DNA from: an uncultured Victivallaceae bacterium
GTDB lineage: Bacteria; Verrucomicrobiota; Lentisphaeria; Victivallales; GWF2-50-93
Length of the DNA: 64,000 nt
NCBI GenBank assembly: GCA_964636325.1
Contig: CAZWRV010000030.1
Coordinates: forward strand, 62-64,061
Direction of reading: 5' to 3'
Below are positions 1 to 64,000 of this stretch, piece after piece. The notes under the pieces were generated by a model that saw only the letters and a list, made by a program, of their open reading frames with translations, was not told where the DNA came from and searched no databases. How positions within the stretch are numbered: position 1 is the stretch's first letter; every line of letters starts with the position of its first letter. The position numbers and the translations under genes are program-made.

Positions 1-106
1 CCGCGGTTGAGCTTGGCTCAACCCTCCGGAAGACGACAAAGATAACGACAAAGATGGGCGAGTTTCAGAGGAATGCCAATCTGCGAACCTCGCAGTTTTG
101 TCGGGG
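1..106 (+). repeat. R2 composite dispersed element, copy 1 (5' part cut by window edge)
   Basis: Shares the CCGCGGTTGAGC-TTG-GCTCAACCCTCCGGAAGACGAC hairpin block with 4618-4772, 37764-37936(-) and 47891-47972(-). It has two 12-nt CGACAAAGATAA-type units, then ATGGGCGAGTTTCAGAGGA. Nt 73-106 begin a second CTGCGA-ACC-TCGCAG arm. Confidence 0.8.
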
Positions 107-209
107 TGAAACTTAATCGGCGTCGGGATCGGTATCGGAATCGGGGTCGAAAAGGCAAAGCTCGATAGCGATACCGATACCGACAGCGACCCCGATTAAC
201 AGGGAAGTT

Positions 210-2258
210 TCAGGGGATCGGGTCGATGTCCCACCTGAAGGGGAGGCCTGTGCAGTCGAGGCCGGCGCCGAGTAAGCGTGGGAGAGGCTTTTCCGGCTTC
301 TGGATCCAGGAGCGGTTGTTGCCCTTTTCGCCCTTGCCGCCGCCGGGATACTTGTCCTCGCCGTCCAGATCGATGAACAGAGCCCTGGTCAGTATCTCGG
401 ATCTCGTGCCAGTCTCGCTGAAGGTTGTCGATGAGCCTAAGGAGCCGCCCGCATAGCTGTCGTTTCCGGCGAAGTCGACGAACAGGGCGACGCTGTTGTT
501 GAGGGCCTGGCCGCATGCGGAGGCACCCTCGTATCGGTCGTCCCCGCCCTCCTCGACGAACAAACTTACGGAGAAGTCGTGAGCCGCGGCGACGTTGACG
601 CAGTTGGTGGAGGTGTAGAGATCGTTGCCGCCGCCGTCGCAGAGGTAGCTGATGCCGAAGTGCGCGGTGGCGGACTGCCCGTACCAGACAGAACGGTAGC
701 TGTCGTTTCCGGCGCGGTCGTCAAGTATCCCTATCCCGTACCAGTAACCGACGGCCTGGGAGAAGACTCCTCCGAAATATGCGTCGTTCCCTGCTGCGTC
801 CAGGAGCATGCCGACTCCGCCTGCGCCCGATTCGTTGTCGAGGTAGTCGCGTCGCTCGCCCGATGCGGCGCCCTGGGCCATGCTGCAGTTGTGCTCCTTG
901 GACTGTGCGCTGGGGTATCGGATGTCGGTGTCGTCGGCGGTATATCTGTCGTCGCCTTCGAAGTCCGCCAGCAGGCCCGCGCCGAGCGTGAGGGCGCTGC
1001 CCTGGGCGTAGCAGTATGCATGGTAGCTGTCGTTCCCTGACTTGTCGATCAGGATTCCGACCCCGAAACAGCCGAAGCCCTGCGCTGAGGCGAGCGAGTC
1101 GTAGGAGTCGTCGCCGGCGCCGTCGTAAAGGATGCCCATGCCCATGAAGCCGCAGCCCTGGCTATAGCCTCCGTCCGCCCTGTAGGAGTCGTTGCCAGCG
1201 AGATCCTCTAGGATGCCCCAGCCGAGCATGCCGGAACCGAAGGAGCCCCCCTGCCCCTTCATCTCATATTTGTCGCTTCCGCCCAAGTCTATGATTATTC
1301 CGATCGGATATTTTTCTCCGTCGGACGCGCCGCCGCAATCGTATACGTCGTCGCCGGAACTGTCTATCGTCAGGAGGTAGTGAAGGCCGGGCTGGTAGAT
1401 GTTTGCGGCGCCGCCGGACAGGAAGATGCGTCCGAACTTGGTGTCGCAGGCGAACTCGTATTTTTCCAGTATCTGCTCCTTGCCGAGTTCGGCGGCCGCG
1501 GCGTCCGTGACGGCGGCCAGGTCCTCTCCGGCCACCAGGAAAGCCTGCAGGTCGATCTTGGAGACAATGTCGGCCTGGTCCAGCGACTCCCTGCAGATCA
1601 CCGCCGAATTCAGGTTCTCCTCCTCCTTCTTCTGCTCCTCCTGGCTGGCGGAAATGCTCTTCAGATCCTTCTCGACGGCGTCATAAAGCGCCCTGCGCTC
1701 GGCCTGCGTGAGGCGGCGGAGTGCGCTCTCTCTCCATTTGACGGCCTCCGCCGCGGCGAAGACGATGGCCGCCGCCCATCTCTGAACCTTCTGCGGGACG
1801 ACCGAGTAGTCCGGCACTTTCGCATCCGGGTCAAGTGCGAGAATCGCAGCCTTAAGGGAGTCCGCCTTTTCGGCCTTGCCTTTGCATATCGACAGCGGCG
1901 CAGGATCGATCAGGTCGCGCGCCGACGAGAGGTTGATGAAGGACGCAGCCTCCTGGAATGTCTTATGCGTGGCGCCCTTGGCGGCGAGGATGTTGCCGCG
2001 CATGTGCCTTTCCCAGAACGGTATCCGCAGAGGATGGCAGAACCACCTGTCGAAGATCGGCGACTTGAAGAGCGTCGGATCCGCGCAGACCATCGCCTCC
2101 GGATCGACGCGGAAACCGCCGCGCGAGGTCGCGATCAGCCCGAGCGCATGGTCGAGCGCGTCGGACTGAGGCTCCGCCGCATCCTCGGCAAAAGCCCCCG
2201 GCATAATCGACAGCATCAGGAGCGCAGCCGCAGCCATCACTTTAATGTCAACCATCAT
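210..2258 (-). CDS. Secreted repeat protein of unknown function (12 G-[NDSE]-D-x-Y cores, beta-solenoid-like)
   Basis: 682-aa ORF with an N-terminal signal peptide (MMVDIKVMAAAALLMLSIMPGAFA). The C-terminal 400 aa consist of units of about 26-27 aa: [AS]G-x-D-x-Y ... QG ... G-x-G-[IL]L-x-D. Codon bias is strong; the opposite-strand ORFs look like GC shadows. Confidence 0.75.
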   Translation of the reverse strand: MMVDIKVMAAAALLMLSIMPGAFAEDAAEPQSDALDHALGLIATSRGGFRVDPEAMVCADPTLFKSPIFDRWFCHPLRIPFWERHMRGNILAAKGATHKTFQEAASFINLSSARDLIDPAPLSICKGKAEKADSLKAAILALDPDAKVPDYSVVPQKVQRWAAAIVFAAAEAVKWRESALRRLTQAERRALYDAVEKDLKSISASQEEQKKEEENLNSAVICRESLDQADIVSKIDLQAFLVAGEDLAAVTDAAAAELGKEQILEKYEFACDTKFGRIFLSGGAANIYQPGLHYLLTIDSSGDDVYDCGGASDGEKYPIGIIIDLGGSDKYEMKGQGGSFGSGMLGWGILEDLAGNDSYRADGGYSQGCGFMGMGILYDGAGDDSYDSLASAQGFGCFGVGILIDKSGNDSYHAYCYAQGSALTLGAGLLADFEGDDRYTADDTDIRYPSAQSKEHNCSMAQGAASGERRDYLDNESGAGGVGMLLDAAGNDAYFGGVFSQAVGYWYGIGILDDRAGNDSYRSVWYGQSATAHFGISYLCDGGGNDLYTSTNCVNVAAAHDFSVSLFVEEGGDDRYEGASACGQALNNSVALFVDFAGNDSYAGGSLGSSTTFSETGTRSEILTRALFIDLDGEDKYPGGGKGEKGNNRSWIQKPEKPLPRLLGAGLDCTGLPFRWDIDPIP

Positions 2259-4617: not shown

Positions 4618-4772
4618 GTGGCTGTCATCTGCGGAAATCGCAGTTATTTCGATGAGAAACTCCACGGAGGGCGAAGCCGTGCTGAGCCGCGGTTGAGCTC
4701 GGCTCAACCCTCCGGAAGACGACAAAGCCGGCGACAAAACTAACGACAAAGATGTTCACGTTGCAGAGGAGC
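4618..4772 (+). repeat. R2 composite dispersed element, copy 2
   Basis: Module order: CTGCGGAAATCGCAG hairpin, GGAGGGCGAAGCCGTGCTGAGCCGC, GGTTGAGC-TCG-GCTCAACC hairpin, three 12-nt CGACAAAG-type units, then ATGTTCACGTTGCAGAGGAG. It ends 6 nt before the GH36-like gene ATG. Confidence 0.85.
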
Positions 4773-4777
4773 TTTGC

Positions 4778-7210
4778 ATGAAACTAGAATGTGACGGCAA
4801 GAGCGGCATCCGCGTATTGATACCCGGATGGACAGGCTTCCACCTGGAAGGCCTGCGCCCGGCGTTATGCGTCGACGGGAACAGGATTGCCTGCGATGAA
4901 AATGCGGAAGTCAAACGCCGTTCGGACAGATTCGCCGTCACATGGAAACTTGGCCCATGCAGTCTAGAGATGCGTGCGGAAGGCCAAGTCGGCGGCGGCA
5001 CGGTAGTCACTTCCACCCTTATGAACACCGGCGATAGCGAACTCCGCCTGGATGACGTAGCGTTATTGCAGGCTGACTGCTCGTTATCAAGGCCGACGTT
5101 TGGAACCGACCATTCCCGTGTCCGTATACTTGAGCAAGGCAACTACTGGGGGCGTGTTCGGCCGTTGACGCATTCCTCCGCGGTGACTAGCTCCCTCGAC
5201 GCCGCGGAACCGGGCGGAGCGCCGGCCCGGCAGGAGCGCGCCTCGGACCTTGTCTCCGTCGTGTATGACCAGGACAGCCGACAGGCTCTGCTTGTCGGAT
5301 TCCTGGCAAGCGAACGTTGGCTTGGCCGCATCCTGGCGAACACCGGCCTGGACGGCTCGGTTTCCACATGGCGCATCGGTTTCGACGCAGGAGAACTGCT
5401 TGTCGAACCGAATGAAAGGCTTGAACTGGAGCCCATAATTTTTCTGTCCGGATCGGATCCGTGGCGCCTGTTGATTCAATATGCCGAACAAGCGGCCTTG
5501 AGGCACAGGCCCTGCATGCCTGTAGGACAAGTGGTCTCATGGTGCAGCTGGTATCCATACCGCCTGGGAGTGACCGAGGAACGAATCCTGGCGGAAGCGC
5601 GGATCGCCGCCCGGCGGCTGAAACCCCTCGGGCTGAAAATAATCGAAGTGGATCTCGGATGGGAAGAGCGGAACCTGCCATGCTCGTTCACTGAAAACGA
5701 ACGTTTCCCACATGGTCTGAAATGGCTTTCCGAGCGGCTCCAGGAATTTGGTTTTGAACTGGGGGCATGGAAGGCACCCTACACGATTTCCGAGTTCGAC
5801 CCACTGGTGAAAGAGCATCCTGAATGGCTGGTTTCCGACGAGACGGGGAGCCCTCTGGCGTATTGGGAATGGTTCTGGAAGCCGCACGGAAAAGTTCATA
5901 TCCTGGATCTGACGCATCCGGGTGCCCTTCAATGGCTGCGGGAAAAAGTGCAGAGCCTGACCGACCGCGGCGTACGCTACTTGAAGTTCGACTTCATCGG
6001 CTGCGCGGCGGATGGAAAGGCCAAGCGACGGCACAATCCCCGCATCGTAATGGGGGCCGGCACTGAGGCGGCGCGCAAGGCTGCAAGCCTGATCCGGGAA
6101 GCGGCGCCGGAAGCGCTGATCCTCAATTGTGGCGGACCGGAAATGCCGGGCACGGGCCACTGGCCACTGCTTTACGCATGCAACGACACCGGGAACTCAG
6201 GTTTCATCGGCCATGGGACGCAGTCTCTCAATTATGAAGCCGTGGCCTGCCATCTCTTCAAGAACCGCCGCTGGGGGCTCATCCAGCCTTCCTGCCTAGT
6301 GGTCGGCCTTCCCGGAACTGTAGAAGATGCCCGGCTGAGGGCGACAATCGCATTCCTTGCCGGAGGGCAGATCGACATATCAGACACTCTGACCACGCTA
6401 CCGGAGGAGCGCTGGCAGATCCTGACCGCGACGCTGCCGCCCGCGCCCGCCAGCGCCAGGCCGGTAGACTTGTTTGAGCCACTGGCCATGGTCCACTTCG
6501 ACTACGAAGGCACATGCCGCGGACAGCAGGGGCAGGCCCAGATCTTGCGGGAGCATCCTCCGGCGTCGGTCTGGCATCTGCGCATCAACGCCGGATGGGA
6601 CGAATGGGATCTTGTCGGAATTTTCTGCTACAGCCCGGGCAGCTCTTCGCCAAAGCCGGAGATATGCCGCTACGTGATTCCTTTGACAAAGCTTGGAATC
6701 TCCGAAGCGCTGCCGCTTTGGGGCTACGAGTTCTGGTCAGGGCAATTCCTGGGAAATGTCCCCGGCAAGCGGCACAATGCCGACGCCTACGTCCATCCTG
6801 GAGACTATCAGGATCTGAAAGTCGGAGGCACATCTGGCATACTTGATGTGGCATTCTTCGGGCCCTGCGCCAAGCTTATCTGCCTGCGCCGTCCAAAACC
6901 CCATCCTTGGGTGCTGGGCACCTCCTTCCACCAGAGCTGCGGCCTGGAACTTGCAGATGTCGCATGGGATCCGGCGGCGCGGCGCCTAAGCGGCGAACTG
7001 CGGCGCCCCGAAGGCGAATCGGGAACGATAATTTTCTCTTCTGACGGCCATGTCCCATTAAGAGCCGAGGCGGACGGACGGGAGATACCAGTTCGGCCTG
7101 GCGCATCAGGCAGCTATGCCTTGGCGCTCATAGCCGCCCGCTCCCCGCTGGAGTGGGCGGTATTTTTCTCGGAAGACTTATTTGTTTCAAAGACAAAGGA
7201 GGAAATGTGA
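4778..7210 (+). CDS. Glycoside hydrolase, GH36/clan GH-D alpha-galactosidase-like
   Basis: 810-aa ORF. The TIM-barrel region WCSWYPY..IIEVDLGWE and RGVRYLKFDF resembles the K-x-D nucleophile block of melibiase-type enzymes. No signal peptide. GAGGAG Shine-Dalgarno 6 nt upstream. Confidence 0.7.
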   Translation: MKLECDGKSGIRVLIPGWTGFHLEGLRPALCVDGNRIACDENAEVKRRSDRFAVTWKLGPCSLEMRAEGQVGGGTVVTSTLMNTGDSELRLDDVALLQADCSLSRPTFGTDHSRVRILEQGNYWGRVRPLTHSSAVTSSLDAAEPGGAPARQERASDLVSVVYDQDSRQALLVGFLASERWLGRILANTGLDGSVSTWRIGFDAGELLVEPNERLELEPIIFLSGSDPWRLLIQYAEQAALRHRPCMPVGQVVSWCSWYPYRLGVTEERILAEARIAARRLKPLGLKIIEVDLGWEERNLPCSFTENERFPHGLKWLSERLQEFGFELGAWKAPYTISEFDPLVKEHPEWLVSDETGSPLAYWEWFWKPHGKVHILDLTHPGALQWLREKVQSLTDRGVRYLKFDFIGCAADGKAKRRHNPRIVMGAGTEAARKAASLIREAAPEALILNCGGPEMPGTGHWPLLYACNDTGNSGFIGHGTQSLNYEAVACHLFKNRRWGLIQPSCLVVGLPGTVEDARLRATIAFLAGGQIDISDTLTTLPEERWQILTATLPPAPASARPVDLFEPLAMVHFDYEGTCRGQQGQAQILREHPPASVWHLRINAGWDEWDLVGIFCYSPGSSSPKPEICRYVIPLTKLGISEALPLWGYEFWSGQFLGNVPGKRHNADAYVHPGDYQDLKVGGTSGILDVAFFGPCAKLICLRRPKPHPWVLGTSFHQSCGLELADVAWDPAARRLSGELRRPEGESGTIIFSSDGHVPLRAEADGREIPVRPGASGSYALALIAARSPLEWAVFFSEDLFVSKTKEEM

Positions 7211-8877: not shown

Positions 8878-8916
8878 ATAAATATTCAGTGAAAGGGCGT
8901 AGTTCACTGAATATTT
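8878..8916. repeat. R1 palindromic REP-like element, variant (TAAATATTCAGTGAA-AGGGCGTAG-TTCACTGAATATTTA)
   Basis: Same architecture and the same GGGCGTAG/CTACGCCC centre as the GTATGAATTCAGCAAA copies. Intergenic. Confidence 0.8.
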
Positions 8917-8948
8917 ACCGGCGGATGCCTATTACCCGCAGGAAAAAC

Positions 8949-10394: not shown

Positions 10395-10410
10395 CTTAAC
10401 ACCTTCTGAT

Positions 10411-10440
10411 TACACTCATTTAACGTGAAAATCTACATTA
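10411..10440. repeat. Solo terminal repeat of the R3 MITE-like family
   Basis: TACACTCATTTAACGTGAAAATCTACATTA matches the left ends of R3 copies (TATACTCATTTGGCGTGGAAATTGACATTTTA; TATACTCTTTTAGCGTGAAAATTTACATTTTG) at about 25/32 positions. It lies 17 nt upstream of the 8949-10394 gene start. Confidence 0.5.
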
Positions 10441-10682
10441 TCGTCGCTAATTGAACGCTGCGCGATTGAGAGGACAAGAGTAAAAAATTGCGATTGATGA
10501 AACTCCGTTGCTTTTTCGTGCGGCCCTGCGCGCTTCCCGGCCTGCCCCGGAATAAGATCTCAATATGCCGGTCTTCGCCTTGAAAACCGCGTTTGCCGCA
10601 CTACAATACACACCCCGCGTATGCGGAACCAAAATTTGCAATCATCTCGACATATAAAAAATAGCAACGAAAGGTGGCTGCG

Positions 10683-11861
10683 ATGTTCGGAAACACATTC
10701 GGAAGGCTTTTCAGGATTACGTGCTGCGGCGAGTCCTACTCTGGAGGGTTCAGGAAGCACCTCCCCGTTCCGAAGGAGCTCTACGGCGGCCTGATGACCA
10801 TCGTCGACGGCGTGCCGGCCGGCATTAAGATCACCGCGGAGATGGTCCAGCACGAGCTCGACAAGCGCAAGCCCGGCCAGACGCCGCTAGATTCTCCTAG
10901 GAAGGAAATTGACAAAGTCTACATATTCTCCGGTGTCATGGAGGGCGACATAACCTCGGGCGCGCCTGTGGGAATGGTCATCCCCAACGTGGACATCCAG
11001 GACGTCCACATCGGCCAGTACCGCAGCTACAAGGACGAGATACGCCCCGGCCACGCCGAATACGGCTATTTCAAGAAATACGGCCGGCATGCGGACTGGG
11101 TCGGCGCCGGACGCGCCAGCGGTCGCGAGACCGCAAGCCGCGTCGCCGGCGGGGCCGTAGCCAAGGCCATACTCGACCGCATGGGCATCGACGTGATCGC
11201 ATACACCGTGGAGTCCAACGGCATCAAGGCGAAGCCCTTGAGCTACGTGGATGCGAAGAAGAACTACAGGAAGAACGATATCAACTGCCCAGACCTGGAG
11301 ATAGCCCCGAAAATGATCGAGGACGTCCTTAAGATCAAGGATGAAGGCGACACCGCCGCCGGAATCGTCGAGTGCGTCGCAGTCGGAGTCCCCGCCGGCC
11401 TCGGCGAACCGGTATTCGACAAGCTCAGCGCCATGCTGGCGCATGGGATATGTTCGATCGGCGCCATCAAGGGAATCGAGTTCGGAGCCGGCTTCGAACA
11501 TGCCCGGATGAAAGGCTCGCAGTCGAACGACAGGGCATACGTCGAAAAAAAGACCGGGCGCGTCCGGTTCAAGACCAACAATTCCGGAGGCATCCTCGGC
11601 GGGATTTCCAACGGGGAGGAGATACGGATCCGCTGCGCCGTCAAAGCGACCCCGACCGTCTCCGTCCCGCAGGAGACAGTCAACGTCGACAAGATGAAGG
11701 ACGTGATCCTCAAGCCCATCACGCGCAGGGATCCCAGCCTTCTGCCGAGGATATATCCAGTCATCGAGGCCATGGTCCGCTGCGTCCTCGTCGACGCCAT
11801 CTACATGGCCGAGGCCTACTGGAAGGTCGCCGAAGTCGAGAAGAAATGGCTGAAGATATGA
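10683..11861 (+). CDS. aroC: Chorismate synthase
   Basis: [23 protein letters not shown]-terminus and full-length collinear family pattern. Start set at MFGNTF rather than the MAAM extension. Confidence 0.95.
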
Positions 11862-13072
11862 TTGGAAAGGCGCTCATGAAGGTCGTAGTCGCATATTCGG
11901 GAGGGCTGGACACTTCGGTGATCCTGAGCTGGGTGAAGGAGAAATACAACGCCGAAGTAATCGCTTTCTGCGCGGACATCGGCCAGGAGGAGGAGCTGAA
12001 GGGGCTGGACAAGAAGGCCCTGAGGACCGGCGCAAGCAAGTGCTACATCGAGGATTTGCGCGAGGAGTTCGCCAGGGACTTTGTATTCCCCATGATGCAG
12101 GCGAACGCGATCTACGAGGGCAGCTACCTGCTCGGGACGTCCATCGCAAGGCCCCTCATCGCCAAGCACCTCATAGAAATCGCCCGCAAGGAGAAGGCGG
12201 ACGCCATCTGCCACGGCGCGACCGGCAAGGGCAACGACCAGGTCAGGTTCGAGCTGACAGCCTACGCCTTCCAGCCTAACATAAAGATCATCGCCCCATG
12301 GAGGATATGGAACTTCAAGGCGCGCTCCGACCTGATCGAGTACGCAAAGAAGCACAAGATCCCGGTGCCGGTGACCGCGTCAAAGCCCTACAGCATGGAC
12401 AGGAATCTGCTTCACATCAGCTTTGAAGGAGGTATCCTCGAGGATCCTTGGGCCGAGCCGCCGGCCGACCTTGGAGTCCTTACCAGCAGCATCGACAAGA
12501 CACCCGACAAAGGCGAGTATGTCGAGGTTGCATTTGAAAAGGGGATACCGGTCAAGGTCAACGGCAAGAAGCTCAGCCCCGCGAAGCTCATGACGGAGCT
12601 TAACAAAATCGGAGGAAAGCACGGCGTCGGCCGCGTGGACCTCGTAGAGAACCGCTTTGTCGGGATGAAGTCGCGCGGCGTCTACGAGACCCCCGGCGGA
12701 ACGATACTGCACGTCGCGCACCGCGCCATGGAGAGCATAACGATGGACAGGGAGGTCATGCACCTGCGCGACAGCTGGATCCCGACCTACGCCAGGCTCG
12801 TCTACAACGGATTCTGGTTCGCGCCCGAGCGGGAAGTCCTTCAGGCCGCGATCACCGAAGGCCAGAAGTTCGTCACCGGCGAAGTCAGGCTCAAGCTCTT
12901 CAAGGGCAGCTGCGTCGTCTGCGGAAGGCGCTCGCCGTTCAGCCTGTACGATCCGAACATCGCGACGTTCGAGAAGGATTCGGTCTACAACCAGGCCGAC
13001 GCGGAAGGCTTCATAAAGCTCAACGCGCTCCGCCTCAGGGTCAGGGCGAACAGCAGGCAGAAGAAGTATTGA
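11858..13072 (+). CDS. argG: Argininosuccinate synthase
   Basis: [22 protein letters not shown]..., ADIGQ, and the [13 protein letters not shown] signature. An ATGA overlap with the aroC stop gives a start at 11858; an alternative ATG is at 11875. The 566-aa track ORF from 11372 is an upstream out-of-gene extension. Confidence 0.95.
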
Positions 13073-14823: not shown

Positions 14824-14896
14824 CAAAATGTTTATGCGCATATTTTGGACTTCGAACGCTCAACGCCGAATGAAGCTGAACAATCGGATTTAACAA

Positions 14897-14987
14897 TTCA
14901 GATTTCCGGCGCCCCTCGCTGAAAAGCCACAAGAGTATTTTCCAGCATTTCCAGCCGATTGATAGGTGCGGGTCAGGAAATCTGAAG
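14897..14987. repeat. R4 element (about 92 bp, terminal inverted repeats TTCAGATTTCC / GGAAATCTGAA)
   Basis: About 80% identical to 37262-37353. It starts immediately after the stop codon of the 14988-16568 gene. Confidence 0.75.
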
Positions 14988-16568: not shown

Positions 16569-16667
16569 GTTGGAGGCACCCTCATTATTCCCTTACATAA
16601 AATTATGCAAGATGTTCTGCTGTCGTTTGAACATCCTACTTCGAACAAAATATTTCGGATTTGAATG

Positions 16668-16945
16668 TTATACTCTTTTAGCGTGAAAATTTACATTTTG
16701 ACGAGCAAGATTTGGGATTGGATTTTTTCGTTCCGACCGAGCGGCGACATGAATGTCGTCCGAGGAAGGAACGGAAAAATACGGCCCAAAGAAGCTCGCC
16801 GCAAGGCGGTTGCGGTCTTTCGGTTTTGCTCCGCCCCCTTCGAGAACCTTCGACACCTCGGTATCGGCGATCTCTCAGAATGCGAAGCAAATTCCAAAAT
16901 CCCAGCAATCAAAATGTAAATTTTTCAGCCTATAAGGAGTATATA
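16668..16945 (+). mobile_element. R3 MITE-like element, copy 1 (about 275 bp, about 35-bp terminal inverted repeats, no ORF)
   Basis: Collinear with 34659-34935 at about 85% identity. The ends TATACTCTTTTAGCGTGAAAATTTACATTTTGA and TCAAAATGTAAATTTTTCAGCCTATAAGGAGTATA are inverted repeats of each other. The many short overlapping track ORFs here are not protein-like. Confidence 0.65.
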
Positions 16946-16987
16946 TGTTGAACGATCAACGTTGGATTTTCAAGCTGTCGCGCCCTA

Positions 16988-19640: not shown

Positions 19641-19681
19641 GTATGAATTCAGCAAAGGGGCGTAGTTTGCCGAATTCATAC
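19641..19681. repeat. R1 palindromic REP-like element flanked by an 8-bp direct repeat
   Basis: GTATGAATTCAGCAAAGGGGCGTAGTTTGCCGAATTCATAC. CGCGGGCT occurs immediately on both sides (19633-19640 and 19682-19689). Confidence 0.85.
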
Positions 19682-23676: not shown

Positions 23677-24427
23677 AATATCCTTATAAAATGGTTGTCG
23701 GAATATATGAGCCGGGTTACACCCAAGTTGCTACGCCCATGTTGAAATTGGATTCAATGAATTGCCGCTGAAAGAAGGAGGGAGATAATATAAATAATAG
23801 GTTTGACCCCGTATTCCCTCGTCTCCATCGGATACGCTGTTCTTTTCCCGACCCATTCGACTTTTTGTATTTTCCATCCTCTACCAAATCTCCGGTCCAG
23901 AATATTAGGCAAAGATCAAATATATGGGTTGAAGGACTACGATTTCAGCCTTACCAATATTTCCGTTTTTTTCCATCCAAATATTTTTGCCGAGAGAGTC
24001 GGCCAAATTGCACGGCATGTCTTGTCACAGGTTGCCTGCTGTCCTATCTCAACATGCCTTGTATGGCCTGTGGCGCTATCATTTAGTCGCCGAATGATTC
24101 ACGATCAGGTTTTTATATTCCTATATTCATTCAGCGTTGTGTGCATTATAGCCTTGTCTTCCATATTCTTAATCTCCGAGCGTCCGCTGTGGTGGATTCT
24201 TAGCTTTTCGATGGACAGGCTTCTATTGGTTGCCGGAGTTCCTGCATGGTTGGGTTGCGCATATGCCGCCAGCCGCCGGACGAAGTTATGGATCGACCGG
24301 TAGTATTCGATTCGCGCATTCGTCCAACCAGAATTCCACCAGATATAAACTTCCCCGAAATTCCGATTCAGGAGGAATTTCAATTCAGATTTCCCGCTAA
24401 CTGCCGCTTTCGGCGAAAGCGGCATAC

Positions 24428-34521: not shown

Positions 34522-34560
34522 GTGAATTCAGCGAACTACGCCCTTTTGCTGAATTCATAC
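34522..34560. repeat. R1 palindromic REP-like element
   Basis: GTGAATTCAGCGAACTACGCCCTTTTGCTGAATTCATAC. Confidence 0.85.
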
Positions 34561-34600
34561 TTAAAGACACAAGACTAAGAGGTGCGACAAATCCGCCTAG

Positions 34601-34655
34601 GCGGACGCCCTCAACCGAGTTTCTGATCAACAAAACTGCGAATCTCGCAGAGCGG
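34601..34655 (-). repeat. R2 element, partial copy (5' arm only)
   Basis: ..GCCCTCAACCGAGTTTCTGATCAACAAAACTGCGAATCTCGCAGAGCGG aligns with 37880-37934 (GCCCTCCATCGAGTTTCTGATCGACAGAACTGCAAATTTCGCAGATGG). Confidence 0.7.
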
Positions 34656-34658
34656 CAT

Positions 34659-34935
34659 TTATACTCATTTGGCGTGGAAATTGACATTTTACGAGCGAGA
34701 TTTGGAATTGGATTTTTTTGTTCCGACCGAGCGGCGACATGAATCTCGTCCGAGGAAGGAACGGAAAAATACGGCCCAAAGATACTCGTCCGCCTTGGCG
34801 GATTGCGGTCTTTCGGTTTTGCCTCGCACCCTTCGAGAGCCTTCGATACCTCGGTATCGGCGGCCTCCCAGAATACGGAGCGATTCCCGAAATCTCCGCA
34901 ATCAAAATGCTCAATTTTCAGCCTAAAGGAGCATA
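34659..34935 (+). mobile_element. R3 MITE-like element, copy 2
   Basis: Collinear with 16668-16945. Terminal inverted repeats TATACTCATTTGGCGTGGAAATTGACATTTTA / TCAAAATGCTCAATTTTCAGCCTAAAGGAGCATAT. Confidence 0.65.
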
Positions 34936-34997
34936 TCTCTGACCCGGGAATATCCAAAAGCCGGCACTCAATACCGCCAGAGGCCGGGATTGGACAT

Positions 34998-37196: not shown

Positions 37197-37261
37197 GAAC
37201 AGACATCCCGAGCCATGCGAAAAGAGATGTGGTGAGATACCGACTCCTGAAGGTATTTCAG

Positions 37262-37353
37262 TTCAGATTTCCGGCGCCCCGCCCTGAAAAACCACAAGGT
37301 TATTCCCCCCCCGTTTCTTGCATTTCCAAAGTAGCGGGTCAGGAAATCTGAAG
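37262..37353. repeat. R4 element (TTCAGATTTCC...GGAAATCTGAAG)
   Basis: About 80% identical to 14897-14987. The mutT stop codon (37339-37341) and its last 4 codons lie inside the right terminal repeat. Confidence 0.75.
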
Positions 37354-37728
37354 CCTGAGGAACTCCCCAAGCGGCCTGTCGGCGGGGACAAGCTCGTCGA
37401 CTTGAAGACCTGCTAACATCACCCATCTCATCCGCTGGCCCTCCTTAGGATGCAGCATGGCCGGATCCGACAGCAGGAAAGTCCGGTAGAAGCATATGAC
37501 GATCGGCCTTTCACTGGTGAGGTTCTGGAACCTGTAGATGCGGTCGGCGACGGCGATTTCGACGCCCAGCTCCTCACGGATCTCCCTGCGAAGGCAGGCC
37601 GCATCGCCCTCATGCGGTTCCCTCTTGCCGCCTGGAAACTCCCAGAAACCCGCCATGTAGGAGCCTTCCGGCCTCGAACATATCAGCACCTCGCCGCCAC
37701 GCCTGAATACGGCGGCGCAGACGTTCAT
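37339..37728 (-). CDS. mutT: NUDIX hydrolase, MutT-type 8-oxo-dGTP diphosphatase
   Basis: Nudix box GGKREPHEGDAACLRREIREELGVEI. ATG at 37728 is preferred over the TTG at 37758. Confidence 0.85.
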   Translation of the reverse strand: MNVCAAVFRRGGEVLICSRPEGSYMAGFWEFPGGKREPHEGDAACLRREIREELGVEIAVADRIYRFQNLTSERPIVICFYRTFLLSDPAMLHPKEGQRMRWVMLAGLQVDELVPADRPLGEFLRLQIS

Positions 37729-37763
37729 TGTCTTAACTTTGCCAACTGTCACGCTCAAATCGC

Positions 37764-37936
37764 CTCCTCTGAAACTCGCCCATCTTTGTCGCGAACTTTG
37801 TCGTTATCTTTGTCGTTATTTTTGTCGTTATTTTTGTCGTCTTCCGAAGGGTTGAGCCAAGCTCAACCGCGGCTCAGCACGGCTTCGCCCTCCATCGAGT
37901 TTCTGATCGACAGAACTGCAAATTTCGCAGATGGCC
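37764..37936 (-). repeat. R2 composite dispersed element, copy 3 (most complete; five 12-nt units)
   Basis: In element orientation: CTGCGAAATTTGCAG hairpin, GATCAGAAACTCGATGGAGGGCGAAGCCGTGCTGAGCCGC, GGTTGAGC-TTG-GCTCAACC, CTTCGGAAGACGAC, (AAAAATAACGAC)x2, AAAGATAACGAC, AAAGTTCGCGAC, AAAGATGGGCGAGTTTCAGAGGAGG. Confidence 0.85.
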
Positions 37937-38084
37937 ACTCCTCCTGAAACTTGATAATCGGTCCTCAGGTCTTCGTCTCCGTTCTTCGTCTGCTTCATAA
38001 AAGACAAAGACATAAGACGAAGAGTTGCGACAAAGAATTCCGCCATCCACGCCCGAAACGGGCATAGGAAATGGAGGGTTGAGT

Positions 38085-38125
38085 GTATGAATTCAGCAAA
38101 CTACGCCCTTTTGCTGAATTCATAC
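38085..38125. repeat. R1 palindromic REP-like element
   Basis: GTATGAATTCAGCAAACTACGCCCTTTTGCTGAATTCATAC, followed by a partial extra arm GCTGAGTTCAGCA. Confidence 0.85.
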
Positions 38126-38302
38126 TGCTGAGTTCAGCATAACGGGAAGCCTGAATCATCACCCTTCAACTTCGAGCACAGCCCCCTCTCCATCGGTAAG
38201 GCTGAACCGGACTGCCACTTCCTCACCGGCGAAGTCGTGCTGGACTGGCTTGCCATCGCGGCGGACTTCGAACTTCGCGCTGCATGCGGCGTATAACGTC
38301 TG

Positions 38303-39184
38303 CTACTCCTTGATCGGCATCTTGCCAGCCTTCTTCATGTCCTCGCAATATTTATCCTTCTGCGAGGAGCTGAGCCACATCAAAAGGCCGTCACCCTCAA
38401 GATCCAAGGCCATGGCATGCGTGCCCTCGGCTGTGAAATCGGCATGCACCATGATACAGTGTAGGCCGATGTCCCAAGGCAGCTCAATGGCTTCGCCTGG
38501 CTTCTTGGGGGCCAGCTCCTGGAAATCTGCGTAGAGGAAGGTCGGAATCTTTTGTTTTTTAGGCGTCTGAAGACGCAGAGTCACAGTCTGCTTTCTCTCG
38601 GACACGAACCAAAACAGGCTGAAGGCCTGGGTTCCGGCCTGCTGCTGTGACACGAAGCAAGGGGGAGGCTCGGCCTTGCCCTTCGCCTTTCCAGCCGCAG
38701 GCGCGCCGGGCTTGCTCTTTGCCTGCGCCTCCAGGAACTTTTCGACGCCCTCGACACCGCCCGGAACCGGAACGGCTGTCAACATCTGCATCGCGATCTC
38801 CTTGCCGTCGTCCTGGTAGACCCAATGCATTGTCTTCTTGCACCACTCCATGAACTTATCGCGAGAGACAGGCGTGTCCGCGGGTGCCACCATGCCGTAG
38901 CCATAACGTATCGGACCGGACTCAAGGCGCTTGTACCAGCTATGGCTGCCGCTGGCCGCGATATACGCCGGAGAAAATGCGCTGCGGTTGTTGGTCTTGA
39001 GCCACTCCTGCATGGCGGGATTATCAATCGCCCCCCAGCAGTTCACCTCGACCGGTGCCGACTCCTCGGCCTTGTCCTTCTTCTTCCCCTTCCCCTCCGC
39101 GGCGTCGATAAGCGGAGAACAAAATATGACAAGGGCAGACAAAACTAATACGGACATCCACATGCTGTGAGCAAATCTCAACAT
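38303..39184 (-). CDS. Secreted hypothetical protein
   Basis: 293 aa with a signal peptide (MWMSVLVLSALVIFCSPLIDA) and Lys-rich linkers. No recognisable family. It ends at a TAG that is followed in frame by 47 coding-like codons (see findings). Confidence 0.7.
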   Translation of the reverse strand: MLRFAHSMWMSVLVLSALVIFCSPLIDAAEGKGKKKDKAEESAPVEVNCWGAIDNPAMQEWLKTNNRSAFSPAYIAASGSHSWYKRLESGPIRYGYGMVAPADTPVSRDKFMEWCKKTMHWVYQDDGKEIAMQMLTAVPVPGGVEGVEKFLEAQAKSKPGAPAAGKAKGKAEPPPCFVSQQQAGTQAFSLFWFVSERKQTVTLRLQTPKKQKIPTFLYADFQELAPKKPGEAIELPWDIGLHCIMVHADFTAEGTHAMALDLEGDGLLMWLSSSQKDKYCEDMKKAGKMPIKE

Positions 39185-39324
39185 AAGATACCTCTTGAAA
39201 AAAACATCCTGAACCTTTATATTGCTTCAGCATTGAGCATGGTCAAGTGCAATATTAGAAGGCACCTATCCTCCTGCTGTCCCGACTGGGACGCCAGTAG
39301 CTGGCGGCGTAGAGAATTATCGGT

Positions 39325-39365
39325 GTAAATATTCAGTGAACTACGACCTTTCACTGAATATTTAC
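39325..39365. repeat. R1 variant element (GTAAATATTCAGTGAA-CTACGACC-TTTCACTGAATATTTAC)
   Basis: Palindromic, with the same centre as the other R1 copies. Confidence 0.8.
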
Positions 39366-39471: not shown

Positions 39472-39512
39472 GTGTGAGTTCAGCAAAAGGGCGTAGTTTG
39501 CTGAATTCATAC
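39472..39512. repeat. R1 palindromic REP-like element
   Basis: GTGTGAGTTCAGCAAAAGGGCGTAGTTTGCTGAATTCATAC. Confidence 0.8.
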
Positions 39513-39740
39513 CTTGATCGGCTCGCCCGAGTCCAGCTTCTTCTTCACGTCGGTGGTCTCCGACCACGGACACGCCATTTCGACAATCCCAGTGTTGCCG
39601 TCACGCATCATCGAGAGCTTGCCCTCGTCGACCGGACCTCCGTCGCGCTCCGCCTTGGGCTGTCGCGGATAGAAATGCTTGCGCGGCACCCCGGGCGCGA
39701 ACAGACGGAATATTTCAGCCCCGCCTACGAACTTTTCCGC
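39507..39740 (-). pseudogene. Possible 3' remnant of a truncated gene
   Basis: The coding-like frame NFQPKAEKFVGGAEIFRLFAPGVPRKHFYPRQPKAERDGGPVDEGKLSMMRDGNTGIVEMACPWSETTDVKKKLDSGEPIKV* is open from a TAA inside the solo R3 end. Only an internal GTG start is available (track ORF 39507-39689). The stop lies inside an R1 copy. Confidence 0.3.
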
Positions 39741-39764: not shown

Positions 39765-39831
39765 TCTTACGGAGCGACTTGGAAAATCTTTCTGCCGAAA
39801 AGATAGTTTGCACGCGCCGCGCGCAAACTAC

Positions 39832-39872
39832 CTGCGCGCCGCAAGGGCGCATTTTTCCCGCAGGGAAAAACC
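39832..39872 (+). repeat. R5 double-hairpin element
   Basis: CTGCGCGCCGCAAGGGCGCATTTTTCCCGCAGGGAAAAACC is nearly identical to 46983-47023. The hairpins are GCGCC-GCAAG-GGCGC and TTCCC-GCA-GGGAA. Confidence 0.75.
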
Positions 39873-39955
39873 TAGTATCTTACTGGACAATATATAATGC
39901 CACCGCCCTGTGGGGGGATTGAATATATGCAATCTCAGGTAAAGAAAAGATGCCT

Positions 39956-46867: not shown

Positions 46868-46982
46868 CTTTATTTCTCCCTTGATTCTATTCGGTGCAAC
46901 TTGGAAAACGTTTTTATCAAAGTATGCCGCGTTCGCCTGTAGCGGCAGTGGCGACTTTTGCGAAGTCGCCATACTCAAGCTC

Positions 46983-47023
46983 CTGCGCGCCGCAAGGGCG
47001 CCTTTTTCCCGCAGGGAATAACC
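46983..47023 (+). repeat. R5 double-hairpin element
   Basis: CTGCGCGCCGCAAGGGCGCCTTTTTCCCGCAGGGAATAACC. It is preceded by another hairpin, GGCGACTT-TTGCG-AAGTCGCC. Confidence 0.75.
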
Positions 47024-47132
47024 TGGCTTTTTACGGCTAACCGCGCCAATATTTTGGGGCTTCCGCCGGAAATCCGGTATAAGCCTTCCGCGAGCTGCTT
47101 CGTTATCTCTTGTCCGTTATCCGGCATCCCCC

Positions 47133-48044
47133 TCACACTATCCTCGTCCATTTCGGACGAATCTCGCCGAGGAAATTCATAAGCCTTAACCCGTTTGCGT
47201 TCAGCCACTTGCGATGTTCACGGCATTCCGGGACAAGATCCGCCACCTGCTTCCAGAACTCGGAGCCGTGATCGGCCCTTCGGAGATGGGAGAGCTCGTG
47301 CGCCACCACATATTCGCATACCTTCTCCGGCGCCATCACAAGCCTCCAGTTGAGGCTTATCCTGCGGTTCCGCTTCGAGCAGGTCCCCCAGCTAGTGCGA
47401 AGATCCTTCAGCCAGAGCGAGACGCTTCCGCCTGGCGCGGCCGGCTCAAGGCGCAACCATATCTGCCTGATCAGTTCAGCGCTCCGCCTGAAATACCATG
47501 ATGCCAGCATGGAGGCCATAAGGCGTTCCTGCTCCCGGGCGTCAAGACGATCCAGGCCGGACTTGAAGATCGCTATCCGTCCACCGTCTGCCGCCACGGA
47601 ATGCGAAAAGCCGGTCCCCTTCTCCAGGCGGAGCTCCACCATCTCCCCGCGGAATGGGACCATTACCGTCCCTCCTGCGAGAATCGGCGAAAGGCTGATG
47701 CGGCTCCCTCGGTATTCGGCGAGCTTCCTTCGTATCCAGGCGCCGTGGCGCTCAAGGAAGCGGGCCACCTCGCCTTCGCCGCAGCCGCAGGGAACTCTTA
47801 CGCTTACGCCGCCCGCTCCCACTGAGAGCGAAAGCCTTCTGAACCTTGTGTCCCGTAGGTATGAAATTTCGCAGTTGTCGATGTGAAATGTCTCCTGAAA
47901 CTCACATATCTCTGTCGGTATCTTTGTCGCGAACTTTCTCGTCTTCCGGAGGGTTGAGCCAAGCGCCGCGCCGTAGTCCGACGAAGACGGGAGTAAAATG
48001 ATTTCATGGCGGGCTTGCTGAGGCCGCCATGAAATCATCCTCAA
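47133..48044 (-). CDS. YgjP/DUF45-like M48-type zinc metallopeptidase (start uncertain)
   Basis: HELSHL (HExxH) and WGTCS motifs. The family core begins near [21 protein letters not shown]. The N-terminal roughly 45 codons (TTG start) are a translation of an R2 repeat copy. Confidence 0.7.
47891..47972 (-). repeat. R2 composite dispersed element, copy 4 (degenerate, inside the ygjP-like ORF 5' end)
   Basis: In element orientation: GGCGCGGCGCTTGGCTCAACCCTCCGGAAGACGAGAAAGTTCGCGACAAAGATACCGACAGAGATATGTGAGTTTCAGGAGA. The left arm of the GGTTGAGC hairpin is lost. Confidence 0.7.
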
Positions 48045-49519: not shown

Positions 49520-49531
49520 GCTGTTGAATAA

Positions 49532-49571
49532 TAAAAATTCAGCGAGAGGGCGTAGTTCACTGAATATTTAC
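49532..49571. repeat. R1 variant element
   Basis: TAAAAATTCAGCGAGAGGGCGTAGTTCACTGAATATTTAC, flanked by TTGAATA on both sides (49524-49530 and 49573-49579). Confidence 0.7.
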
Positions 49572-63761: not shown

Positions 63762-63972
63762 GCGGTAGTGCTGACCGATAGAAAGGGACGGACGGGCGAG
63801 GAGGTGCTTGCCGACCACCGGAGCAGGGACTTGGCCGATCGGCAGTGAATATCCCGTTGCCAGTATAGATACCACAATTTTTTTAGTTTAGGTTCCACGG
63901 CTGGACGCTCACGGTGTTCCGCTGATACGGAAGGCGCATTTCAATGATGCGGATTCTACAGCCCGGTGCAGA

Positions 63973-64000
63973 GTATGAATTCAGCAAACTACGCCCTTTT
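63973..64000. repeat. R1 palindromic REP-like element (cut by window end)
   Basis: GTATGAATTCAGCAAACTACGCCCTTTT is identical to the first 28 nt of the copy at 38085. Confidence 0.8.

Follow-up and report, generated by a model that had tools for sequence, protein, structure and literature searches.

R2 loci in the window

The window, i.e. the whole 64-kb stretch analysed here (64,000 nt of contig CAZWRV010000030.1, from an uncultured Victivallaceae bacterium), carries genes of an ordinary chromosome, among them gyrA, folP, cdaA, accA, miaB, dxr, purL, argG, rpoD and glycoside hydrolases. Between them lies R2, a genuine family of short, modular, non-coding DNA repeats in an uncultured member of the Lentisphaerota. 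The 64 kb contain four copies and one fragment, and nhmmer searches with module profiles revealed no further copies in the window. The 22-nt core GGCTCAACCCTYCGGAAGACGA is present four times, at 15-36 (+), 4701-4722 (+), 37837-37858 (-) and 47939-47960 (-), compared with 0.00 matches expected from shuffled sequences. Copies 2 and 3 are 88% identical across 128 nt, and copies 1 and 3 are 95-96% identical across 52-55 nt (blastn, repeat detection). By the same two approaches all five loci named in an earlier note on this DNA were recovered, although some extents had to be corrected: copy 1 reaches position 113, a second F motif (AGTTTCAGGAGGA, 37939-37951) stands before copy 3, and the fragment occupies 34606-34660 on the minus strand. 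Copy 2 (4618-4772, +) and copy 3 (37764-37951, -) are full. Copy 1 (1-113, +) is cut by the window start, the first base of the window being already inside R2, copy 4 (47864-47964, -) is 5'-truncated, and the sense strand of fragment 5 (34606-34660) is the minus strand, as in copy 3. The modules, lettered A to F in the sense orientation, and the elements adjoining them are as follows.

1-33, plus strand: copy 1, B-D core, 3' half only; palindrome of 8 bp at 5-23 with CCTCCGGAAGA after it; 5' side cut off; covariance model 47 bits, 5'-truncated
34-55, plus strand: copy 1, E array; 2 units of CGACAAAGATAA
54-72, plus strand: copy 1, F module; ATGGGCGAGTTTCAGAGGA
73-113, plus strand: copy 1, A module after F; hairpin 81-95, T-tract 96-101, GAAACT 108-113
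106-217, plus strand: H element after copy 1; long hairpin of hexamer arrays and their inverse; ends GAAACTTAATCGG and CCGATTAACAGGGAAGTTTC
206-217, plus strand: terminus of this H element, F-like AGTTTCAGGGGA; overlaps the stop codon of gene 210-2258 (minus strand)
4618-4663, plus strand: copy 2, A module; hairpin 4629-4643, T-tract, GAAACTC 4656-4662
4664-4722, plus strand: copy 2, B-D core; long hairpin 4666-4713, -32.7 kcal/mol, z -4.2
4720-4753, plus strand: copy 2, E array; 3 units
4752-4781, plus strand: copy 2, F module; ATG 4752 (9-codon open reading frame, ORF), AGAGGAG 4765-4771
34606-34660, minus strand: fragment 5; A module (hairpin 34636-34650, GAAACTC 34617-34623) and B-like start GGTTGAGGGCG
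37733-37783, minus strand: copy 3, F module and mini-ORF; ATG 37783, GAGTTTCAGAGGAG 37764-37777, AGGAGG 37763-37768, TAA 37733-37735
37782-37839, minus strand: copy 3, E array; 5 units with 55% A and a mean probability of 0.63 of being unpaired
37837-37895, minus strand: copy 3, B-D core; long hairpin 37846-37893, -25.1 kcal/mol on the sense strand
37896-37938, minus strand: copy 3, A module; hairpin 37916-37930, T-tract, GAAACTC 37897-37903
37939-38040, minus strand: mosaic upstream of copy 3; G module (an E-like array, inverted), hairpin H and CCGATTATCA, with a second F motif, AGTTTCAGGAGGA, at 37939-37951
47864-47907, minus strand: copy 4, F and A remnant; F ATGTGAGTTTCAGGAGA 47891-47907, 16-nt spacer, truncated A remnant CTGCGAAATTT 47864-47874
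47908-47941, minus strand: copy 4, E array; 3 units, junction AAAGTTCGCGACAAAGAT common with copy 3
47939-47964, minus strand: copy 4, 5'-truncated core; 3' arm of the palindrome and D

Mosaic arrangement of the modules

R2 is a mosaic and not one fixed unit. The A module consists of a weak hairpin and a T-tract (plus GAAACTC) and is 65-81% identical among copies, while the 57-nt B-D core is 96-100% identical. In the comparison of copies 2 and 3, 55 of 57 positions of B-D and 33 of 43 positions of A are identical (Fisher p=0.004), and therefore the modules differ in age or in constraint. The E array comprises 2, 3, 5 and 3 units in copies 1, 2, 3 and 4, exactly as counted in the earlier note. 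Across the 13 units compared, a conserved 10-nt core CGACAAAGAT is followed by 2 variable bases, which makes up the 12-nt unit; the arrays contain 41-55% A and have a mean unpaired probability of 0.63-0.67. Since the junction AAAGTTCGCGACAAAGAT is common to copies 3 and 4, their arrays have a shared origin and have diverged as units were gained or lost.

The F motif AGTTTCAGRGGAG has five exact occurrences and a GTTGCAGAGGAG variant in copy 2, all of them at R2 loci and every one placed after a GA-rich short-repeat array. Two of these instances are part of the adjacent long-hairpin H elements, 106-217 and 37939-38040. The A module is closed by GAAACTC, the inverse word of F, so that modules B-E are framed by a 7-nt inverted repeat; F, GAAACTC and E-like arrays turn up again in the adjacent hairpin elements. 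F is followed by A in copy 1, upstream of copy 3 and in copy 4, and A is followed by B in copy 2, copy 3 and the fragment. Because both joins occur, the module order, ...F-A-B-C-D-E-F-A..., is cyclic. The composite nature of R2 described earlier, along with the modules themselves, was thus borne out, but the fixed order given for them is only one view of the mosaic. The left boundary of the A module (RTGSC..AT) is identical in 4/4 cases, and what lies to the left of it varies: F twice, the end of a MITE (a transposable element of the miniature inverted-repeat kind) once and unique DNA once. At 115-195 and 37965-38030 lie long hairpins whose two arms consist of short tandem repeats and the inverse of these, the unit being a TCGGKA hexamer in one hairpin and of the GACGAAGA type in the other; CCGATTAWCA and the F motif come after both. 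The E array of R2 looks like one arm of such tandem-repeat hairpins.

With a length of 155-190 nt, an intergenic position, several copies and no coding signal, R2 has the features of small non-coding MITEs (<300 bp). It does not have, however, the long terminal inverted repeats and target duplication of MITEs. Terminal inverted repeats as long as about 10 bp, or longer, were not found in R2, only short imperfect inverted words: the GAAACTC/GAGTTTC pair (7 bp) is perfect in copy 3 only, and the ends TCTGCG and CAGAGG have about 6 nt in common. A consistent target-site duplication was also not found, copy 3 being flanked by AGTTTCAGGAGGA and AGTTTCAGAGGAG and the left flank of copy 2 showing nothing comparable. 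Two other kinds of mobile-element site were considered and dropped, namely integron attC, whose core sites do not fit, and IS200/IS605-type ends, for which the right-end hairpin is lacking.

Predicted structure of the B-D core and hairpin 1

On the sense strand the B-D core forms one long imperfect 17-bp hairpin (GGAGGG-AGCCG-GCU-AGC / GUU-AGC-YGGCU-CCCUYC), the fold of lowest energy for each of the two full copies (-32.7 kcal/mol, z -4.2, in copy 2; -25.1 kcal/mol, z -2.1, in copy 3). On the antisense strand of copy 3 this fold is lost (-18.8 kcal/mol). The 8-3-8 palindrome GGTTGAGC-N3-GCTCAACC is perfect and invariant in three copies; it had been described as a separate perfect 8-bp hairpin, and it does exist, but as a part of the 17-bp hairpin (GGAGGG...CCCTCC). 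Alternative pairings are possible, both between the 8-bp palindrome and the long B-D hairpin and between F and GAAACTC. Pairing of the A tail with the E unit (TTTTGTCG with CGACAAAG) was dropped, as it is good in copy 1 alone. Leader-peptide attenuation was dropped as well; the F-A alternative pairing is available only where no gene follows.

Hairpin 1, in the A module, keeps 100% of its pairing in the four copies with two one-sided G-U changes, and its sequence variants are those listed previously. Altogether four stem substitutions were observed, hairpin 1 and the B-D hairpin contributing two each, and all four give G-U on the sense strand and A-C on the opposite strand. The earlier statement that the wobble pairs work on the sense strand only therefore holds for every stem substitution, while the RNA structure deduced from it is suggested and not established. 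The strand-asymmetric pattern is suggestive of pairing in a sense-strand RNA (roughly p=0.06 when only transitions are counted, the B-D hairpin having been picked after its fold was seen), but G-T pairs are tolerated in single-stranded DNA too. No base pair was changed on both sides, in a comparison of 2-4 sequences that has no statistical power for covariation.

The palindrome and the array could also be read at the level of DNA, with the 8-3-8 palindrome as the operator of a dimeric regulator and/or the 12-bp array as a set of iteron-like protein sites, the copies together defining a regulon. This explanation is in agreement with the perfect and invariant palindrome in three copies, with the conserved array core, variable spacers and fixed 12-bp spacing, and with the location of R2 40-110 bp 5' of gene starts. 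However, it leaves the other ~150 conserved nt, the G-U strand asymmetry and the copy facing a convergent gene unexplained. Moreover, D, E and F persist in copy 4 although half of its palindrome is gone, there is no promoter nearby on which a regulator could act, and a 12-bp period mismatches the helical repeat. A role as a protein-binding site is consequently considered very unlikely. DnaA, IHF and Hfq-ARN motifs in the array were dropped after inspection on account of poor fit.

Hairpin 1 is weak. Its 6-bp stems have free energies of -5 to -8 kcal/mol and non-significant z-scores. A T-rich tail lies 3' of it on the sense strand in 4/4 A modules, and the terminator scan flags two of the four. 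If this hairpin and the U-tract marked a transcript end, R2 could be a family of small RNA genes with the order B-C-D-E-F-A and an unrecognised promoter, and the position of A after F in copies 1 and 4, the two terminator-like hairpins and the predicted stable stem-loop at the 5' end with an unstructured region after it would be consistent with it. Such genes are nevertheless highly improbable, since no promoter-like site is present, copies 2 and 3 lead from F directly into a gene with no A in between, hairpin 1 is weak and R2 has no relative in Rfam. The search of Rfam 15 gave no match overlapping any R2 copy even at E<5; only a tRNA passes.

Relation of R2 to the neighbouring genes

Pfam identifies the genes flanking R2, whose copies lie at unlinked loci, as melibiase/GH36, NUDIX, YgjP, RpoD and aldo-keto reductase, i.e. 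unrelated housekeeping genes (GH36, NUDIX, YgjP/RpoD and aldo-keto reductase), and in this way also upholds the GH36-like, mutT and ygjP-like genes named before. In the protein collection the source contig (64,251 nt) is represented by P0121, P0203, P0204 and P0206. The gene upstream of R2 is co-oriented with it in 4/4 known cases, and a co-oriented gene lies downstream at 3/5 R2 loci. All three gene-adjacent copies occupy short spacers between co-directional genes; the A module of copy 2 starts 12 nt past the aldo-keto reductase stop, and the spacer of that copy would measure only about 16 nt without R2. Copy 1, as had been recognised, has no co-oriented gene after it and faces a convergent gene. 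The proposed bias of R2 in orientation and distance to start codons is not demonstrable with 3-4 cases, and the co-orientation of the upstream gene is the more consistent relation.

The AGGAG of the F module sits 4-10 nt 5' of the likely start of the downstream gene in copies 2, 3 and 4. In copy 2, AGAGGAG lies 6 nt 5' of the GH36 ATG 4778; in copy 3, AGGAGG lies 4 nt 5' of the mutT TTG 37758 and 10 nt 5' of GTG 37752; in copy 4, AGGAGA lies 8 nt 5' of codon 47882, where homology to YgjP starts. A Shine-Dalgarno sequence at 5-9 nt is common among the genes of the window, and because many of them use it, the AGGAG of F is plausibly functional. The end of R2 appears to provide the next gene with its ribosome-binding site.

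The short ORFs that begin at the conserved ATG vary from copy to copy. In copy 2 the mini-ORF has 9 codons from ATG 4752 and its TGA overlaps the GH36 ATG as ATGA, and in copy 4 it is reduced to ATG-TGA. In copy 3 it runs from ATG 37783 to TAA 37733-37735, with the stop 4 nt 5' of the mutT ATG 37728. These coordinates agree with the earlier description, but the status as an upstream ORF depends on the start of mutT, which is ambiguous (TTG 37758, GTG 37752 or ATG 37728). The public gene call (P0203) uses GTG 37752, and if that start is true, the supposed upstream ORF is an out-of-frame overlap with mutT. The ATG of the mini-ORF has no Shine-Dalgarno sequence of its own.

It was proposed in the earlier note that R2 is a portable leader, and this proposal agrees with the AGGAG found here, in all three gene-adjacent copies, at a spacing suited to ribosome binding, the function itself being unproven with n=4. 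Under this explanation R2 would be a dedicated 5' leader, a cis-acting RNA cassette selected for its function, in which the B-D stem-loop protects the mRNA, the tunable A-rich array acts as a ribosome standby site or enhancer, and the mini-ORF and the Shine-Dalgarno sequence couple translation. In addition to the AGGAG position, the 96-100% conservation of the B-D core next to drifting flanks, the pairing kept on the sense strand only and the unpaired, A-rich E array would be expected of such a leader, and so would the mini-ORFs ending at ATGA on the GH36 start (copy 2) and 4 nt 5' of ATG 37728 (copy 3). The array units, with their 10-nt core and variable spacers, are also not identical products of slippage. 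On the other hand, copy 1 and the fragment at 34.6 kb precede a convergent gene and no co-oriented start, no copy contains a promoter-like site, the downstream genes are functionally unrelated, compensatory covariation was not seen, and the modules recur in other arrangements. The mini-ORF is a further difficulty, as its ATG is not preceded by a Shine-Dalgarno sequence, it is ATG-TGA in copy 4 and it is out of frame in copy 3 if GTG is right. A dedicated leader, the main rival to the reading preferred below, is therefore possible but rather unlikely. Less likely still is its more specific form, in which R2 would be a self-contained portable translation-initiation cassette before unrelated genes, combining the protective stem-loop, the unstructured A-rich array, the conserved ATG and the embedded AGGAG in the manner of a natural bicistronic design, with mini-ORF coupling and with the unit number tuning or switching expression.

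No promoter-like (sigma-70-like) site was detected in or around any R2 copy, and for that reason transcription of R2 is most simply attributed to read-through from the upstream gene. Sigma-54 and sigma-70 promoters were dropped for want of a match, and an ECF-like GAAAC-N17-CGTG at the A-B junction was dropped as well; it is absent from copy 4.

The ygjP call deserves separate mention. The public call (301 aa) begins at ATG 48038, 2 nt past the rpoD stop and within the 5' arm of a terminator-like hairpin after rpoD (-27.7 kcal/mol, z -6.0), and runs through this hairpin and the entire R2 copy 4, the extension having no homology. YgjP homologues begin near codon 47885 ('HID'), and the frame contains no ATG, GTG or TTG between ATG 48038 and GTG 47822. 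The annotated start is probably wrong, and ygjP may use a non-canonical start (ATC 47882) or be a damaged gene. The A remnant of copy 4 (CTGCGAAATTT) sits within the ygjP reading frame. The passage of this call through copy 4 in the sense frame, an antisense frame (…[IV]EFLI…) that is open in all four copies, and ORF 37450-37947 (+), which covers copy 3, could be taken to mean that R2 is a coding sequence or derives from a small protein. But the copies are homologous, so that their openness is not independent evidence, and they have no common start or stop. No frame has a Pfam match or a like protein among 5.8 billion, the antisense ORF overlaps mutT, and the annotated YgjP start lies inside the -27.7 kcal/mol hairpin with an extension devoid of homology. 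A coding origin is thus extremely improbable.

Searches beyond the window

The closest relatives of the RpoD protein belong to Lentisphaerae and Victivallales metagenome-assembled genomes (MAGs), at 45-53% identity. The nearest relatives of the proteins neighbouring R2 are remote (GH36 72%, YgjP 31%, RpoD 53%) and show no synteny. The 22-nt core had 0 matches in 185,579 GTDB species genomes and 0 matches in IMG/VR viral contigs; a single match in a JGI metagenome proved to be a 24-nt chance match in an unrelated coding sequence (CDS). Copy 3 had no blastn match among plasmids and phages, and blastn-short with all copies gave no match in 85 loci (1.39 Mb), including Lentisphaerae and Victivallales MAGs. 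The scan of relatives proposed in the earlier note thus brought no further R2: with the B-D covariance model, one 20-bit match was obtained in the Lentisphaerae/Victivallales loci (L005), and it was judged by eye to be a false positive inside a CoaBC-like ORF. Peptides encoded by R2 (three frames open through the core and one sense-frame stretch) had no match among the 5.8 billion proteins. The restriction of R2 to this lineage is supported by these comparisons.

R2 among dispersed mosaic repeats

The earlier note knew of no described element with this architecture, but two such elements exist, and co-transcription, overlap with CDS calls and clustering with other repeats are documented for composite repeats that contain a variable internal tandem array (PMC3049150; PMC4596501; PMC10969869). 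The BOX elements of S. pneumoniae and S. suis, boxA-(boxB)n-boxC, have the same modular plan with variable internal tandem units (Croucher et al., 2011; PMC3049150). As described there, they are intergenic and often co-transcribed with their neighbours, as is proposed for R2, and like R2 they are predicted to form stable RNA stem-loops to which the tandem module adds little, overlap CDS annotations with spurious ORFs on both strands, and are clustered and nested with other small repeats. The two differ in the tandem unit (45 nt in BOX, 12 nt in R2) and in the host (Firmicutes and Lentisphaerota, respectively); unlike BOX, R2 ends with only a 6-7-nt inverted repeat and has a terminal AGGAG that resembles a Shine-Dalgarno sequence and apparently serves the next gene. 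In Porphyromonas gingivalis the BrickBuilt MITE, composed of a leader, a spacerless tandem minisatellite and a tail, likewise corresponds to the plan of R2, in which modules A-D are followed by 2/3/5/3 units of 12 nt and then by F (Klein et al., 2015; PMC4596501). It is like R2 in its small inverted-repeat ends, in being always intergenic and in its restriction to one species (about 19 copies there), but its unit is 23 nt long and promoter activity has been shown for it, whereas R2 has no sigma-70-like site. With hosts of different phyla, the kinship of R2 to BOX and BrickBuilt is an analogy and not membership, the comparison being one of architecture and not of reference sequences. What is new here is the R2 family by its sequence, its class and architecture being already known.

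For BIME and Correia elements the parallel is one of function. The BIME/REP elements of enterobacteria resemble R2 as mosaics that combine a few short motifs with palindromes and lie in intergenic spacers that are transcribed. Their REP units are GC-rich palindromes of ~35 nt tied to RAYT transposases. R2, in contrast, is made of a 57-nt imperfect hairpin and a 12-nt array, and the window holds no RAYT gene, which places it outside REP/BIME. Some BIME/REP serve as attenuators or mRNA stabilisers between cistrons (in part PMC3049150). The Correia/NEMIS elements of Neisseria are often located just 5' of genes, are co-transcribed, have long hairpins that are processed and alter the next gene (PMC3049150; PMC10969869), but their 26-bp terminal inverted repeats, TA duplication, IHF site and sigma-70 promoters are all missing from R2. 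With the leaders and riboswitches of Rfam, R2 has in common the conserved sense-strand hairpins 5' of a Shine-Dalgarno sequence and possible alternative pairings; it differs from them in the lack of an Rfam match, the unrelated downstream genes, the lack of covariation and the copies that no gene follows.

On the whole, it is judged fairly probable that R2 is a new lineage-restricted family of dispersed mosaic repeats of the BOX/BrickBuilt/BIME/Correia class, co-transcribed in intercistronic spacers. The repeat with its modules, the asymmetry of its structure and the position of the Shine-Dalgarno motif are directly observed, and from them a mechanism may be proposed. R2 copies in spacers 3' of co-oriented genes would most likely be transcribed by read-through as intercistronic or 5' untranslated region (5' UTR) RNA. 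In this RNA, the weak hairpin and U-tract of the A module could act as an attenuator or a 3' stabiliser, and the B-D core, as one stable 17-bp stem-loop, might affect termination, processing or stability, perhaps together with the A hairpin. The E array would be an unstructured, A-rich spacer whose length shifts by gain or loss of 12-nt units (slippage), and the AGGAG of the F motif would now be serving the downstream gene as a Shine-Dalgarno sequence. As regards the spread of R2, modules framed by the 6-7-nt inverted words GAAACT/AGTTTC may recombine or insert side by side, and such recombination or insertion is proposed to give rise to the cyclic F-A-B...F order and the truncated copies. Transcription, the roles in RNA and mobility are what we infer from the observations.

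Several points weigh against this interpretation. Four copies and one fragment are too few for a meaningful orientation or distance statistic. Mobility is deduced from the distribution alone, because long terminal inverted repeats, a target duplication, a transposase and RAYT are all lacking in the window. High copy number across the genome is likewise not demonstrated, the peptide search for other read-through copies having remained empty. Furthermore, recent insertions predict equal similarity of A and B-D, which was not seen, and the near-invariance of B-D could reflect function rather than youth. The regular spacing of AGGAG in 3/3 gene-adjacent copies fits a dedicated leader as well as the survivorship of tolerated insertions. 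Finally, a terminator role of the A module is doubtful because hairpin 1 is weak (-5 to -8 kcal/mol, z-scores non-significant).

Other repeats and features of the window

The host genome is repeat-rich, and R2 is one among several small families. The intergenic DNA of the window (8.3 kb) is crowded with small repeats, at least four other families being present besides R2 in the same 64 kb. Protein family scans found no transposase or RAYT gene in the 64-kb window. A REP-like palindrome of 41 nt, with a fold of -21 kcal/mol (z -5.6) and no T-run after it, is present in about eight copies and has two subtypes, GTATGAATTCAGCAAA-CTACGCCC-TTTTGCTGAATTCATAC and ATAAATATTCAGTGAA-...-TTCACTGAATATTTAC, with the loop in either orientation; no Y1 transposase/RAYT for it was found in the window. 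The window end falls inside the last copy, and both ends of an independent Logan contig of the same organism (L086, 1,255 nt, SRR12969846) that is 100% identical to window positions 38097-39351 fall inside palindromes of this kind. Apart from SRR12969846, one further run contains the organism. The longest ORF of a histidine-phosphatase gene starts at ATG 19679 in one of them, its N-terminus 'MNSANYAPLL' being encoded by the palindrome; this start is probably spurious, the true one lying further downstream. The repeats are located as follows.

8878-8918, 19641-19681, 34523-34561, 38085-38126, 39325-39365, 39472-39513, 49531-49571 and 63965-64000: 41-nt REP-like palindromes
16655-16965 and 34648-34945: MITE-like element of ~290 nt, 2 copies, 87% identical
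39831-39883 and 46982-47034: 53-nt repeat, 89-95% identical
14886-14939, 24373-24397 and 37251-37304: intergenic repeat of 25-46 nt (…TTCAGATTTCCGGCGCCCC.C.CTGAAAA.CCACAAG…)

The MITE-like element has ~35-nt terminal inverted repeats (TATACTCNTTTRGCGTGRAAATTKACATTTT...) and folds end to end on either strand. One of its copies adjoins R2 fragment 5, which borders the end of this ~290-nt element, and the other lies beside a decayed A-like stretch. The 53-nt repeat contains GC-rich hairpins and a T/A run (CCTGCGCGCCGCAAGGGCGC-TTTTTCCCGCAGGGAA), and its copies lie directly 3' of minus-strand genes, one of them ygjP and the other of prepilin type. Possibly a terminator module that has been repeated, it recalls the SPRITE element of pneumococci. 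The 25-46-nt repeat is found at gene ends, including directly 3' of mutT. The region 1-220, with the H element after copy 1, has a fold z of -5.2. The minus-strand ORF 210-2258 next to it encodes 682 aa with 27-residue (81-nt) internal repeats (…DGAGDDSY…-like) and no Pfam match, and its stop sits in the F-like motif of the H element. About 1.4 kb at 10395-11850, between a ceramidase-like gene and the place where argininosuccinate synthase homology starts (residue 170 of ORF 11372-13072), hold no confident gene, the ORFs on both strands having no Pfam match.

Significance

To our knowledge, small dispersed repeats are well known in a few model pathogens and hardly at all in the Planctomycetes-Verrucomicrobia-Chlamydiae (PVC) superphylum or in uncultured lineages. 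Here, roughly a quarter of the intergenic DNA of the window belongs to at least five small repeat families, one of which apparently ends in the ribosome-binding site of housekeeping genes. Assemblies break at such repeats, in which the start of the window and the two ends of the Logan contig are situated, and gene callers are misled by them, as is seen from the YgjP call that passes through R2 and the terminator hairpin and from the ambiguous start of mutT. If transcription data and strain comparison bear out the proposed mechanism, R2 would be a clean case of a repeat rewiring the translation-initiation regions of unrelated genes, and its length-variable spacer would be a natural system for the evolution of 5' UTR architecture.

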